A stretch of DNA of 64,000 bases from an uncultured Candidatus Saccharibacteria bacterium. Its GTDB lineage: Bacteria > Patescibacteriota > Minisyncoccia > Minisyncoccales > CAZKCU01. Both the position numbers and the translations under genes were made by a program. Each line of letters begins with the position of its first letter. Position 1 is the stretch's first letter. The DNA is taken from contig CAYSLI010000001.1 of assembly GCA_964431915.1 (NCBI GenBank), positions 191,824 to 255,823 on the forward strand, in the 5' to 3' direction. Below, piece after piece: positions 14,037-19,966 of this stretch. The notes beneath the pieces were generated by a model. It had not been told where the DNA came from and did no database searches. It saw only the letters and a program-made list of their open reading frames with translations.

Positions 14037-14306
14037 CTATAATCCTAAAAAAACGTTAACTTTGTTTTTGGTAACTTCCAGTACTCCTCGTTTAAATTGG
14101 TAAGTGGCTTTTTTTTTGTCCGGAGTAAGGATTGAAAGGTTGTTAAAAATAAGGCTAATAAAGTTGGCATGTTTGGGTAAAATATCAAATTTACCCAATT
14201 TATTTTGAGACGAAACTACTTCTGCCTTTCCCTGATAAAAAACTTCTTTAACAATTGGCAACCAGAATACATTTACTTCTAAAAATTCTTTTTTTTTAGA
14301 ATTCAT
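14037..14306 (-). CDS. atpC: F-type ATP synthase epsilon subunit (short form, beta-sandwich only)
   Basis: The LEVNVF...GKFDILPKHANFISLI...LEV pattern aligns with the epsilon N-terminal domain. Terminal gene of the atp operon. Confidence 0.7.
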   Translation of the reverse strand: MNSKKKEFLEVNVFWLPIVKEVFYQGKAEVVSSQNKLGKFDILPKHANFISLIFNNLSILTPDKKKATYQFKRGVLEVTKNKVNVFLGL

Positions 14307-14319
14307 AGATTAATTTCCT

Positions 14320-15678
14320 TTAATAGGGTAAGTCGCCGATACCAAGCAGTTTCTCATCGGGAAGTCGGTCTAATTCCCCTTTTAAAATCTTTCTTACCCC
14401 TCGGACAGTTTTTTCTCTCTCTACATATTTACCCGATTTCCCGGTCTGTTCAGTTATAATAAAAAAGTCCTGGGCCATAAAATTCAAAATTTTTCTTGCT
14501 CGATGATAGATAACTCTATCTTCCATCAATAGTTCCGCTTCTCCGACAATAGAGACAATTCTTTGGAGTTCTTTATATCTTTCTAAAATTCTTTTTGCCT
14601 CTAAAAGTGCTTGATAATGTTCCTCTCCCAGAATGGCTGGAGTTGTCACCGAGGAAGAAGAAGCTAAAATGTCAATTGCTGGATATCTTCCTTCCTGGTA
14701 AACATCACGAGAAAAAATAACCATTGAATCAAAATAGGGGATGATGGCTTGAACTCCAGGATCAGTGATGTCATCGGCTGGAATATAAACTGCCTCAATG
14801 CTGGTAATAGAGGCTTTTTCAGTTGAAACCAATCTTTCTTGCAGGGCCCCGATTTCACTATCTAAGGTTGCCTGATAACCTCCTTCTGAGGGGATATTCA
14901 TTAATAAAGTTGAAAGTTCATTGCCGGCTTGTAAAAATCGATAGACATTATCAATAAAAAAAATGGTGTCTTTTTTTTGAATATCTCTAAAATACTCAGC
15001 GATGGTAGCAGCTGATAGTCCCACTTTAAACCGGATAGCTGCTGTTTCATTCATTTGGCCAAAAACTAAAACTGTTGATGGCAAAACATTAGTTCTCTTC
15101 AAAGTTTCGTAGAGCTCGTAACCTTCTCTAATTCTTTCTCCGATTCCAGCGAAAACTACAATTCTTTGTTCTTGAAAAACAACATTATGCATTAATTCTG
15201 AAAGAAGAACTGTTTTTCCCAATCCGGCTCCGCCAAAAATTCCCAATTTCCCCCCCTTCATTAAGGGAGCAAAAAAATCAATTACTTTTATTCCAGTTTC
15301 AATTAATTCTTTTTTCAATATCGTTTCTTGATAAACAGGAGAATGCTGGTAAATCGCCCTTTTTTCTTTAATTTCGAATTGAGGAAGGTTATCAATGGGC
15401 TGGCCAAAAATATTAATCACCCTTCCCAAAAGCATTTGGCCTACCGGAATTTTCAGTGTTTGGCTAGTTTTTTTCAGTTTGGATCCTCGATATAAGTTTT
15501 CACTTTTAGTTAGAGAAAAACACAAAAAGACCTCTTTCTTTATAGCGCTTACCACCTCTAATTTTACTTCCGGATCATCTTCTAAAACTAAAATTTCTCC
15601 TAAAAAAAGATTACCATCGTAAAATTCTACTTCCACTACATTTCCCAGGATTGATAATATTTGCCCTTTTTGGTTCAT
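14320..15678 (-). CDS. atpD: F-type ATP synthase beta subunit
   Basis: P-loop [10 protein letters not shown] and DELSEED-region equivalents. 452 aa. Confidence 0.95.
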
Positions 15679-16520
15679 AATTTAATACTACTAAAAAGTT
15701 CAATTTGTTTTTTATTTAATTTTTGCCTTTTCAACTTATTTTCAACTATTGATAATCTTTGTTCTGAGTTTTTTGTATTTTCAGTGGCTTGATACATAGC
15801 CATCACTCGAGAAGCATATCGAGCCAATTGATGTTCTAAAATGGTTTGGTTAAACAAAACGGCAATGATTTCTGTCTCAAAAAATTCCAAGACTGCTTCA
15901 GGCGATGGCTCAAAGAGATAGGGGTAAACTTTTTCAAATTTTTCCTCAAAAGGCAACTTTCCCGAGATTTCATTCATTATCGGTTTTTGAGATAAGACTT
16001 TTTCATATCTTCCATGAGAAACAATGATTTTTTTATAATTTTTGATAAATTCAATAATTTCTCCAATTCTTTTTTCTTTTGGCTTTACATCGTTTAATTC
16101 AAAATAAAACATTTTATGCCCAAACCCATTGCCTTCGGCCAAATATTTACCTGTCTTTCCCACCACCGCTAAATCTGCTTTATTCTTTTCTAAATATTTT
16201 TGAATTTCTTTCCAGATATCTAAAATTAAAGCTCCGTAAAAAAATTGATTTGCCGAGAGGAAAACGACTACCGTTTCTTTTTCTGCTCGGCGAAAAGAAA
16301 TTTTTTCTTTTCTAATCCACCCCTTTTTTAAAGAAAAAAGATATGCTGATTTGATTCTTTGATAAGTATTTAATAATTCTCTAAAAGATTCTCGATTCTT
16401 TAATACTTTTTCTCTAATTTGTTTCATTCTTAAATTGGCAATTTCCTGATAAGTGCTGGCAATATTCTTAATTGTTGATATCATTTCTAAGTTTTTTCTT
16501 ATTTCTTTAAGGGTAGGCAT
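15675..16520 (-). CDS. atpG: F-type ATP synthase gamma subunit
   Basis: N-terminal [25 protein letters not shown] and C-terminal coiled-coil helices. The start is likely the internal Met, which abuts the atpA stop. Confidence 0.8.
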
Positions 16521-16521
16521 G

Positions 16522-17991: not shown

Positions 17992-18458
17992 AATTGTTTT
18001 TGAGAAAACAACTTATCTATCTCTTTGGCTAATGAAAGATTAATCTGTCTTCCTTGATATTCTATGAGTGCTCCGCCGACAATTTCTGGATTGAAATTAA
18101 AATCTAAAATCACCTTTTGGTTGATTTCTTTTTCCAGCCAAAGGGAAATTTTATTAATAAATTCTTTTTTTGGCTGGAAAGCAATTACTATTTTAATTTG
18201 AGGGAGATTTTGAAGATGTTTTTCAAAATTTTCAAAAAAAATCCGATTATCTTCAGGATTTTTTGAAATTATTTTCTTTTTTTCCAATTCTTCAAGTTCT
18301 TTTCTGAAATCTTCTTCTATATTTCCCTTAACCCTTTCCGATAGGGGAATATTTATATTTTTAAAAATTGACTCCTGAACTAAATTTATTTCTTCAAGGA
18401 GAAATAATAAATCTTCCTTAGTAACTATTTTTTTAGCAAAATCTCTAAATATCTCCAT
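17988..18458 (-). CDS. atpH: F-type ATP synthase delta (OSCP) subunit
   Basis: 156 aa. C-terminal ...VGGALIEYQGRQINLS pattern. Operon position between b and alpha. Confidence 0.7.
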   Translation of the reverse strand: MEIFRDFAKKIVTKEDLLFLLEEINLVQESIFKNINIPLSERVKGNIEEDFRKELEELEKKKIISKNPEDNRIFFENFEKHLQNLPQIKIVIAFQPKKEFINKISLWLEKEINQKVILDFNFNPEIVGGALIEYQGRQINLSLAKEIDKLFSQKQL

Positions 18459-18481
18459 TTTACATTATTTTCATCATCTCA

Positions 18482-19138
18482 TTATAAAATTTTTTCCTTT
18501 TTTGCTTTTTCTAAAGCTTGTAGAACTAATTCTTCGTGAGTAGAAAGATCAATTGCTTTTCCGATTGTTTTCTTTGCCACATCTTCTATTATTTGATAAA
18601 TTTTTTGGTCTATCTCTTTTAATTTTTCTTTTTTATAATCTTCAATATTCTTTTCGGTTTGGGCAATTTTTTGGTTTATGGATTTTGTAGCCGTCTGGTA
18701 AATTCGGCCGATTTTTTCATCCAGACCTTTGCTTAATTCATCCGTTCTTTTTTTTGCCCCTTGTAATATTGAATCTTCGGCCTGAGAGCAGGTATTGCTG
18801 AATTTTAAAATTTCGTTGTTGGTTATTTCATCCCAATTAGCTATCTTATTTTCTGCTTCTTGGGAAAAAACGGCTATTTGTTCTTTATAAGATTCTATTA
18901 CTTCATCGGCAATTTTTTGGCTGATTTCCGAAATAGTCTTCTCTGTTTCCTGGTTAATCATTTTTTCTAATTCTAATAAGAATCCTTCAGAGAATTTTAA
19001 AGATATAACGTCCTTTTCTTCTTTTTCTTTTTTGGACCTTTTCGCTAAATAATAAATATCTAAGCCAAATAAAATTACTGCCATTATTGCCAAAATGCCA
19101 AAGCCAAGCAAAATAATAAGGAAAATTTGAGTATTCAT
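18482..19138 (-). CDS. atpF: F-type ATP synthase subunit b
   Basis: Single N-terminal TM helix followed by a long charged coiled coil. Operon position. Confidence 0.7.
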   Translation of the reverse strand: MNTQIFLIILLGFGILAIMAVILFGLDIYYLAKRSKKEKEEKDVISLKFSEGFLLELEKMINQETEKTISEISQKIADEVIESYKEQIAVFSQEAENKIANWDEITNNEILKFSNTCSQAEDSILQGAKKRTDELSKGLDEKIGRIYQTATKSINQKIAQTEKNIEDYKKEKLKEIDQKIYQIIEDVAKKTIGKAIDLSTHEELVLQALEKAKKEKIL

Positions 19139-19192
19139 ATACCGAGCTTCCGAAGGAAGCGAGGGTGAAGATGAAGCTTTAGCTTCATCGCC

Positions 19193-19966
19193 TTAATAAA
19201 GTATAACAAATAAAGCCAACCCCAGTCCAGCCAGAGTTAAAACTAAAATCCCGATTAAATTTAAAACCATTGCCAACTGAATGCTCTTTTTGGCTAAAGG
19301 GTTTCTACCCATAGCTTCTACTCCTTTACGCAAGGCGCTTACAAAAGCAAAAAAACCGGCAAAAAAACTGCCGCCCCCTAAGATAAGCGCGAAAATATAT
19401 CGTAACACCGCAGGAAAGTTTTCCGGTTTTCCTAATTGCCTCCATATTTCACCGAAGATGCCAGTTATTGGAACTTTACCTGAAGTATATTGATATTGAA
19501 TATTAATCTTAGTTTTAATTAATCCCTCTTCTTGATTAAAATCTTCCAAAGCTCTTCCTACTACAAATCCAGATTGAGTTGCTTTTTGTCCTGTTCCTTG
19601 TTTTTCCGAAGAAGTAATGAAATCACCCTTTTTTATTTCTCCATTAATATTGCTTACTTTGACTGATGTTTCTCCAAATGAGACTATCGGCAGGGTAGTA
19701 GGGGTTGGTTTACCGAAAACTAAAATCGGAGTTTCTCCCACTACTCCAATTATGTTTTCGTCATAAGGAATGTTTGAGCGAAACAATCCTTCTTTGGTTT
19801 GAGAAATAATATCTCCAACTTTTACTTCCGGGTCAGCCACTTCAAGATTTTTGGCAATAAGGGCCATATCCTGGGCAAAAACAATTCCATTTAGAATAAA
19901 AACTAAAGAAAATATTAATAAAACTAATTTGAATTTTTTTGTCATCGTTTCTTTATTATATCTCAA
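19193..19966 (-). CDS. Secreted protein with C-terminal 2-TM hairpin resembling an ATP synthase c-subunit without the essential carboxylate. Occupies the operon slot where atpB/atpE are expected.
   Basis: Signal peptide ([18 protein letters not shown]|QD). About 170-aa soluble domain. C-terminal ...[63 protein letters not shown]. The Gly-rich TM1, RNP loop and GLGL end recall the c-ring hairpin, but Gly sits where the Asp/Glu carboxylate would be. Confidence 0.3.

Follow-up and report, generated by a model that had tools for sequence, protein, structure and literature searches.

The operon and its first gene

In a 64,000-nucleotide stretch of contig CAYSLI010000001.1 (hereafter the window), taken from an assembly deposited as an uncultured Candidatus Saccharibacteria bacterium, an operon for an F-type ATPase lies on the minus strand at 14037-19966. 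The open reading frames (ORFs) together with Pfam and NCBIfam searches give the order X-b-delta-alpha-gamma-beta-epsilon, where X encodes a secreted beta-barrel fused to a c-subunit-like transmembrane hairpin and stands in the slot of the ion-carrying subunit c. The initial annotation, which was made from the sequence alone, had read the same order (X-atpF(b)-atpH-atpA-atpG-atpD-atpC), and both databases place delta, alpha, gamma, beta and epsilon at the same coordinates. All features of the region are collected in Table 1.

Table 1. Coordinates of the operon, of the parts of X and of the neighbouring genes in the window
Feature	Position	Strand	Remarks
X, fusion of barrel and c-like hairpin	19193..19945	-	250 aa; identical to P0001; first gene of the operon
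Signal peptide of X	19871..19945	-	residues 1-25; read from the sequence, probable cleavage at ...IVFA/QD
Extracytoplasmic beta-barrel of X	19496..19864	-	residues ~28-150; phage pre-neck-appendage/tail-fibre/cement type
c-subunit-like hairpin of X	19196..19432	-	residues 172-250; invariant G-R-N-P loop, no membrane carboxylate
Strain-variable insert between X stop and b start	19139..19192	-	53 nt; exact match 19142-19192
b-like peripheral-stalk subunit	18482..19138	-	218 aa; N-terminal transmembrane helix and long helix
delta (OSCP)	17988..18458	-	156 aa; PF00213, E 6.2e-8
F1 alpha	16522..17991	-	489 aa; PF00006, E 8e-65
F1 gamma	15675..16520	-	281 aa from the ATG at 16520; PF00231, E 2.6e-24
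F1 beta	14320..15678	-	452 aa; TIGR01039, 490.6 bits (cutoff 462.85); catalytic motifs intact
epsilon	14037..14306	-	89 aa; PF02823, E 9.4e-10, residues 20-85
IS1595-like gene	20001..20771	-	256 aa; directly upstream of X; PF12762, 33.3 bits (gathering 27)
Giant surface protein	21408..29270	+	2620 aa; divergent from the X operon; Pfam
Response regulator	13666..14034	+	122 aa; stand-alone receiver domain
PAS/HisKA histidine kinase	12430..13530	+	paired with the response regulator; Pfam annotations in L001, L005

X had first been taken to start at a TTG at 19966, but gene callers and the identical protein P0001 use the ATG at 19945, which was adopted here. Searched as the whole protein, as the hairpin alone or as the barrel alone, X gave nothing usable in Pfam or NCBIfam, and a signal was obtained only with family profiles. 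The family comprises 931 matches at E<=1e-3 in a 90%-identity database and 16750 representatives of 50%-identity clusters at the same threshold, 425 of them at E<=1e-30. Its proteins are unnamed, and the sole organism label in the 90%-identity search was Nealsonbacteria (P0069). The AlphaFold2 model of X (mean pLDDT 81.5) begins with a signal-peptide helix, continues with a beta-rich domain (residues ~30-148) and an ill-defined linker of low model confidence (residues 150-172), and ends in a helical hairpin (174-214, 216-249).

That the C-terminal part of X looks like a c subunit was already noted in the initial annotation, and the profile comparison proposed there as a check bears this out. 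When 62 X hairpins were aligned with nine c subunits by hhalign, a probability of 91.9%, an E-value of 7e-7 and a score of 37.4 were obtained over 70 columns in register, compared to a mean score of 9.6 (sd 2.1, maximum 19.7) for 200 column-shuffled c alignments and an E-value of 0.73 for the reversed control. A profile of 30 X sequences run against all PDB sequences gave seven matches, five of which are c subunits; the top match, to the Spirulina c chain 2wie (E 0.039), is aligned over the entire hairpin. In Foldseek the modelled hairpin superimposes on c subunits with a root-mean-square deviation (rmsd) of 1.3-2.0 Å at 18-28% identity. The Pfam family ATP-synt_C (PF00137) matches three of the 62 X family members (best E 1.7e-4), the X of the window itself staying below the Pfam threshold. 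With E-values of 5.5e-4 to 5.8e-3, the X of nine further loci was also matched by our own c-subunit hidden Markov model (HMM), which was built from nine c sequences (the a-subunit HMM from two). The resemblance between X and c is well beyond chance, and the hairpin is very likely a genuine homologue of the F-type c subunit. Because X has a signal peptide and a K/R-rich loop between the two helices, its predicted topology puts the barrel outside, the loop inside and the C-terminus outside, like in bacterial c.

To count residues per column, 268 sequences of the X family were anchored on the loop and numbered from the loop proline (P), so that P+18 corresponds to Leu234 in the X of the window. 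The RNP loop that had been seen in this one protein is invariant: R-N-P is present in 268/268 sequences, inside a near-invariant EAxGRNPLA. Asp or Glu occurs at P+14 to P+34 of helix 2 in none of them (0/268), helix 1 is essentially free of both, and neither helix carries a conserved charged residue. The column that holds the carboxylate in c-rings, P+18, is occupied by L, I, V, A or F. The initial annotation was right about the missing carboxylate but had put a Gly at the proton-binding position, whereas HMMER and hhalign both align this column to Leu234.

The conserved polar positions of the hairpin are Asn at P+13 (89%), Ser at P-23 (72%), Thr at P+21 or P+17, and also P-16; judged from the sequences, they look like packing layers between the helices. 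They could alternatively belong to an unconventional ion site, for example Asn P+13 together with the Ser/Thr layers, which would act with a non-homologous stator channel encoded elsewhere and keep the enzyme ion-coupled. The conservation of these positions fits such a site, and so does the b/delta stalk, which is kept in most loci and suggests torque against something in the membrane. We consider this unlikely, since neither helix has a conserved charge and no conserved multi-transmembrane gene was found beside the operon in related loci, and to our knowledge a carboxylate serves in every F, V, A and N rotor ring characterised so far.

The N-terminal part of X had been described as a signal peptide followed by a soluble domain of ~170 aa. 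The signal peptide holds, with a FAQ motif that is conserved in the family alignment A1, but the soluble part is smaller and consists of a barrel of ~120 aa plus the linker. The barrel is similar to phage capsid cement/decoration proteins and, in phage phi29, to the head-fibre base and to the auto-chaperone at the C-terminus of the pre-neck appendage gp12. Foldseek matches to the PDB have E-values of 5e-5 to 1e-3, and in BFVD phage pre-neck-appendage/tail-fibre barrels are matched at E 2.5e-11 with an rmsd of ~2 Å over 125 residues. When 62 family members were run singly against Pfam, XM1_gp53_minor_capsid was assigned to 16, Phage_cement_2 to 8 and the intramolecular chaperone (IMC) family Peptidase_G2 IMC to 3. 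A GDFITSS...GxGQKA motif is nearly invariant, and across the family the barrel is as well conserved as the hairpin. The same barrel recurs as a module close to the C-terminus of giant surface proteins that reach 4272 aa, and may be present three times in one protein (L029, L036, L043, L045, L048, L059-L062, L065, P0153, P0187); these giants are often encoded near an X operon.

From the phage likeness it could be argued that the barrel is an intramolecular chaperone which helps the hairpins to oligomerise and is then cleaved off, leaving a bare ring that anchors F1 without a crown of barrels or any mechanical output. The matches to the gp12 auto-chaperone and to Peptidase_G2 IMC, the nearly invariant motif and the low-confidence linker would all suit this reading. 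However, known IMC domains sit at the C-terminus and serve trimeric fibres, a cleavage motif was not identified in X, and a barrel conserved to the same degree as the hairpin fits a lasting function. An only transient role of the barrel therefore appears quite unlikely.

Linkage to F1 and the search for subunits a and c

To see how widely X accompanies F1 genes, the X alignment was scanned against one genome per GTDB species and ±10 kb were examined at each of the 60 loci obtained. Their labels include Parcubacteria, Nealsonbacteria, Wildermuthbacteria, Paceibacterota, WWE3, Levybacteria, Amesbacteria, Roizmanbacteria and Woesebacteria; some automatic labels on co-assembled bins ('Saccharibacteria', 'Gammaproteobacteria') are unreliable. 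About 45 of these loci have X as the gene immediately preceding (b)-(delta)-alpha-gamma-beta-epsilon. On one 940-kb Roizmanbacteria contig (L045, L055) there are two copies of X at a distance of 30 kb, of which a single one has F1 genes, and in L057 copies of X flank the operon on both sides.

In the reverse test the gamma alignment served as an X-independent probe of JGI metagenome contigs, which gave 80 loci with gamma identities of 40-91%. Where enough upstream DNA was available the order was X-b-delta-alpha-gamma-beta-epsilon in 43/43 cases, and none of these loci lacked X. The comparison with sister genomes that the initial annotation had proposed thus yields the X-first order in about 88 loci from several phyla of the Candidate Phyla Radiation (CPR). 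The linkage of X to the F1 genes is obligate, and X is probably a subunit of this F1 complex.

TIGR01039 is the one equivalog model whose cutoff is passed, by beta; alpha reaches 456 bits with NF009884 (cutoff 554), and because alpha, gamma, delta and epsilon all score under their NCBIfam equivalog cutoffs, the whole F1 has to be regarded as diverged. All 40 beta sequences examined retain Walker A and the GER motif (regex GER.[RN]E), and the P-loop of alpha is retained in 42/42 loci. For the alpha Arg finger, Walker B and DELSEED, strict patterns matched only part of the loci. The F1 genes are not decaying, their catalytic motifs are intact, and the operon does not represent a remnant in decay. 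The beta gene of L030 falls into two overlapping ORFs, owing to a frameshift or a sequencing error.

The gamma ORF spans 15675-16544, and its ATG at 16520 agrees with the gene call in L001. Epsilon had been described as cut down to its beta-sandwich domain, and indeed the Pfam match comprises the N-terminal beta-sandwich only; the protein is short throughout (median over 39 loci, 88 aa). The b-like gene is conserved in most loci of the GTDB and metagenome sets. Its window sequence matches subunit b weakly (E 0.19), and the family profile finds the ATP synthase b/b' chains 9o19_X (E 3.8e-5) and 6fkf_p (E 6e-3) mixed with apolipoprotein-type helical matches, so that its identification as b rests mainly on architecture and operon position.

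To look for the missing Fo subunits, the a and c HMMs were run against 705 stop-to-stop ORFs of at least 35 aa in the window. No a was found and the sole c match was X itself (E 0.08), in agreement with the initial annotation, which had seen no recognisable a or c gene in the operon. In 145 related loci (GTDB ±10 kb and metagenome) the same HMMs found none besides X itself, and a conserved multi-transmembrane a-like gene beside the operon was looked for in related loci with no result. A closed genome points in the same direction: the circular 878-kb WWE3 genome RAAC2 has no recognisable a or c, the genes adjoining its ATPase show no homology to a, b or c, and its putative c resembles a transmembrane protein of OP11/WWE3 ATPase operons (Kantor et al., 2013, mBio, PMC3812714). 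Since two WWE3 loci of our set (L033, L037) read X-b-delta-alpha-gamma-beta-epsilon, the three 'unknown' genes of that genome are X, b and delta, and no candidate for a is left. Subunit a is thus absent from the loci and, as we infer, from the genome. Ordinary c subunits have been reported in Absconditabacteria/Vampirococcus and some groundwater CPR genomes are annotated with a, b and c, so the X type is clade-specific and not universal in the CPR.

Canonical atpB and atpE genes could nevertheless lie elsewhere in the genome, with X in an accessory role within an otherwise ordinary ion-coupled F1Fo, e.g., in its assembly, as an additional member of the ring or as an anchor. Such split atp operons are known in other bacteria, some Patescibacteria are reported with a, b and c, and our reading covers ±10 kb per locus and 64 kb of this genome. 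This explanation is very unlikely in our view. The closed WWE3 genome has the X operon and no recognisable a or c, and no orphan a-c pair turned up in ~2 Mb of related DNA. In addition, X keeps the loop that contacts gamma and epsilon in every one of the 268 sequences and fills the c slot at all 43 gamma-probed loci, which would make a second ring redundant.

The upstream gene, the intergenic insert and the conserved neighbours

An IS1595-like gene abuts X, as first annotated, and insertion of this element had been offered as a possible cause of a disrupted operon. The position stands and the disruption does not. The gene scores 48.8 bits in NCBIfam (cutoff 75), and its orthologue in L005, whose X is 69% identical, lies in the same place with 73% identity. 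Besides the same-strain copies and L005/L012, it was found upstream of X in six loci of the GTDB scan and in 15 metagenome loci. No convincing terminal inverted repeats were detected around it, only a weak 24-nt pair with 75% complementarity. With a position conserved across species, it is a syntenic neighbour of X rather than a recent arrival, and may be domesticated or resident. Between this gene and that of the giant protein, 20940-21210 is G+C-rich with several short inverted repeats and has no Rfam match.

One could read the operon as a remnant truncated by this insertion, with a coincidental likeness of X to c; the adjoining IS1595-like gene and the fact that X alone has no Pfam match would be in its favour. 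This is already refuted by the identical gene order in about 88 loci of several phyla, the syntenic IS-like gene, the intact F1 motifs and homology statistics far above the controls. Disruption by an insertion was accordingly discarded as a candidate explanation, and the age of the X-first operon far exceeds that of any single insertion.

The 53-nt insert between X and b contains two perfect hairpins, one with a UUCG-type loop. It is present in the window and in L004, is missing from the otherwise identical L001-L003 and occurs as a single copy in the window. In the related genome L005 a 79-aa GIY-YIG ORF (11424-11663) lies between b and delta.

The giant surface protein encoded divergently from the operon begins with a MerR-like helix-turn-helix (HTH), contains one transmembrane helix as well as FG-GAP repeats, and ends in an FGE-sulfatase-like region. 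In about 30 of the 42 loci with enough upstream DNA, this divergent position is taken by a large surface protein that likewise has one transmembrane helix. The N-terminus is a short cytoplasmic HTH, clearly MerR in Microgenomates/WWE3 loci (E 1e-14) and diverged in Parcubacteria (E 0.022 in the window). Parcubacteria-type loci have this N-terminal module conserved upstream of X, followed by a conserved post-transmembrane region, and at the equivalent position in Microgenomates/WWE3 loci there is a MerR HTH, a transmembrane helix and a large ectodomain. The giant may act as a regulator tethered to the membrane, or mechanically as a partner of the operon product. The stretch 22001-30000 with this gene has a G+C content of 41-46% as compared to 32-35% around it, which may reflect repeat composition or a foreign origin.

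On the other side of the operon, 45 of 82 loci have a short response regulator, which either follows epsilon directly or separates alpha from gamma (11 loci) and mostly comes with a histidine kinase. In L006 the regulator/kinase pair lies at 9576-11361. The neighbours point to a regulated cell-surface device. The window is otherwise ordinary core chromosome (rpoB, rpoC, ftsK, recA, uvrA, RNase J, a pilB-like ATPase, ligA, ftsW), and Rfam and tRNA scans of it found only one tRNA-Leu.

A proposed machine and its relation to known ATPases

The homology of the hairpin to c, the family-wide loss of the carboxylate, the linkage to F1 and the intact F1 motifs support the unconventional rotor that the initial annotation had listed as one option. 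We propose that X is a diverged c homologue which would have given up the Asp/Glu buried in the membrane and acquired an extracytoplasmic barrel of the phage-fibre type at its N-terminus, and that X, b, delta, alpha, gamma, beta and the short epsilon would together form a CPR-specific F1-type ATPase. Operon position and loop conservation suggest that X oligomerises to a c-ring-like membrane body. In c subunits the R-Q/N-P loop is the contact for gamma and epsilon, and the invariant cytoplasmic G-R-N-P loop of X would presumably bind the same two subunits, while the outer face of the ring would bear a crown of barrels.

Ion translocation requires a rotor carboxylate together with the Arg of subunit a. 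As X has no carboxylate and no a was found, the complex should be unable to couple rotation to the flow of H+ or Na+ and would run only in the direction of ATP hydrolysis. Such a direction fits the short epsilon, which is devoid of the C-terminal helices that inhibit hydrolysis. The membrane-anchored motor might then turn or strain the extracellular crown and in this way could move or tension the adhesin-like giants encoded alongside. Control might be exerted by the adjacent receiver-domain regulator and its kinase, and possibly by the divergent giant via its MerR-like domain.

These parts differ in how probable we judge them. For the X-F1 complex we lean slightly towards the absence of ion coupling. 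Mechanical output through the crown is a tentative idea that is less probable than its contrary. For the proposal as a whole, a CPR-specific F1-type ATPase on a carboxylate-free c-like ring that is probably not ion-coupled, the balance is about even. The wider claim that the 'F-type ATP synthase' of Parcubacteria, Microgenomates and WWE3 is a non-chemiosmotic, ATP-burning rotary surface motor with a CheY-like switch is speculative and rather improbable.

Several observations weigh against the proposed machine. Minimal operons X-alpha-gamma-beta-epsilon without b or delta exist (L030, L044, L048, L052, Microgenomates-type) and are hard to reconcile with torque against a membrane stator, and where b is present, its transmembrane helix has no known holding partner without subunit a. 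In L031, L034, L042 and L045 X or an X-b pair is located apart from F1 genes. The conserved Asn at P+13 has no assigned role in the proposal, and the barrel may be removed after assembly, as it resembles auto-cleaving intramolecular chaperone domains. The negative result for a and c spans the window and ±10 kb per locus and is therefore weakly informative genome-wide; the a-subunit HMM, built from two sequences, had no CPR positive control. That X forms a ring, touches gamma and epsilon and rotates is inferred.

Reviews describe nearly all Patescibacteria as keeping an F-type ATP synthase without a respiratory chain, a puzzle for which proton scavenging or reverse proton pumping has been suggested. 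If large CPR clades have neither a subunit a nor a rotor ion site, both explanations would fail there, and the membrane of these clades would have to be energised from elsewhere, e.g., by H+-PPases (cf. PMC3812714). The operon would then represent a natural F1 motor joined to a non-chemiosmotic membrane part. Completeness tools that score "F-type ATPase present" from F1 subunits would in this case probably have led to mis-annotation of thousands of genomes.

In the literature only Kantor et al. (2013, PMC3812714) was found to deal with an a/c-less CPR ATPase, and no later analysis. In papers on Parcubacteria, Vampirococcus, Microgenomates Ch65 and groundwater CPR and in two reviews, the enzyme is treated as ordinary or not mentioned. 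Neither the c homology, the carboxylate loss in the whole family and the phage-type ectodomain nor the obligate F1 linkage across Parcubacteria/Microgenomates/WWE3 and the regulatory neighbours are described in any publication that we found. The 'putative c subunit' of WWE3 RAAC2 belongs to the same operon type as X, but its domain architecture, c homology, carboxylate loss, distribution and neighbours were not analysed there (Kantor et al., 2013, PMC3812714).

Compared with the bacterial F1Fo (atpIBEFHAGDC), the operon has the F1 set, delta and a b-like stalk in canonical order with X in the c slot, and X shares with the F-type c subunit (PF00137) the hairpin fold, the topology, the R-N/Q-P loop and detectable homology. 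It differs in having no a gene, no Asp/Glu in helix 2 of X throughout the family, a signal peptide and a barrel of ~120 aa on X, and an epsilon without C-terminal helices. The machine is F-type by descent and fails two hallmarks of F1Fo, subunit a and the rotor carboxylate. N-ATPases are likewise lineage-specific, divergent F-type operons, but they retain a and c with an Na+/H+-binding carboxylate. Membership in this group was rejected, as TIGR03305 and TIGR03324 gave 453 and 386 bits against cutoffs of 752 and 750 and no a or c was found. Among the duplicated c subunits of V/A-type enzymes and in c1 of A. woodii, individual hairpins may be carboxylate-free as in X; there, however, the site persists in other hairpins and the enzyme has an a/I subunit, whereas X lacks the site in the whole family.

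The nearest functional analogue may be the F1-like X0 ATPases of Mycoplasma, reportedly described by Beven and co-workers in 2012 and by the Miyata laboratory, with Type 2/3 clusters, MSC_0618/0619 and the gliding motor MMOB1660/1670 of M. mobile. They are said to combine F1-type alpha and beta with non-Fo membrane partners in a wall-poor, host-dependent lineage with giant surface proteins, and to hydrolyse ATP for mechanical work and not for ion coupling. The X operon is not a member of this group: NF045934, NF045936, NF045858 and NF045863 gave 401, 272, 372 and 368 bits against cutoffs of 570, 520, 850 and 600. Its alpha and beta are nearer to canonical atpA/atpD (456 and 490 bits as compared to 272-401), it keeps delta, gamma, epsilon and a c homologue, and the partner proteins are unrelated in sequence. 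If the CPR enzyme did act as a surface motor, it would represent a third independent use of F1, beside ion pumping/ATP synthesis and the gliding of Mycoplasma.

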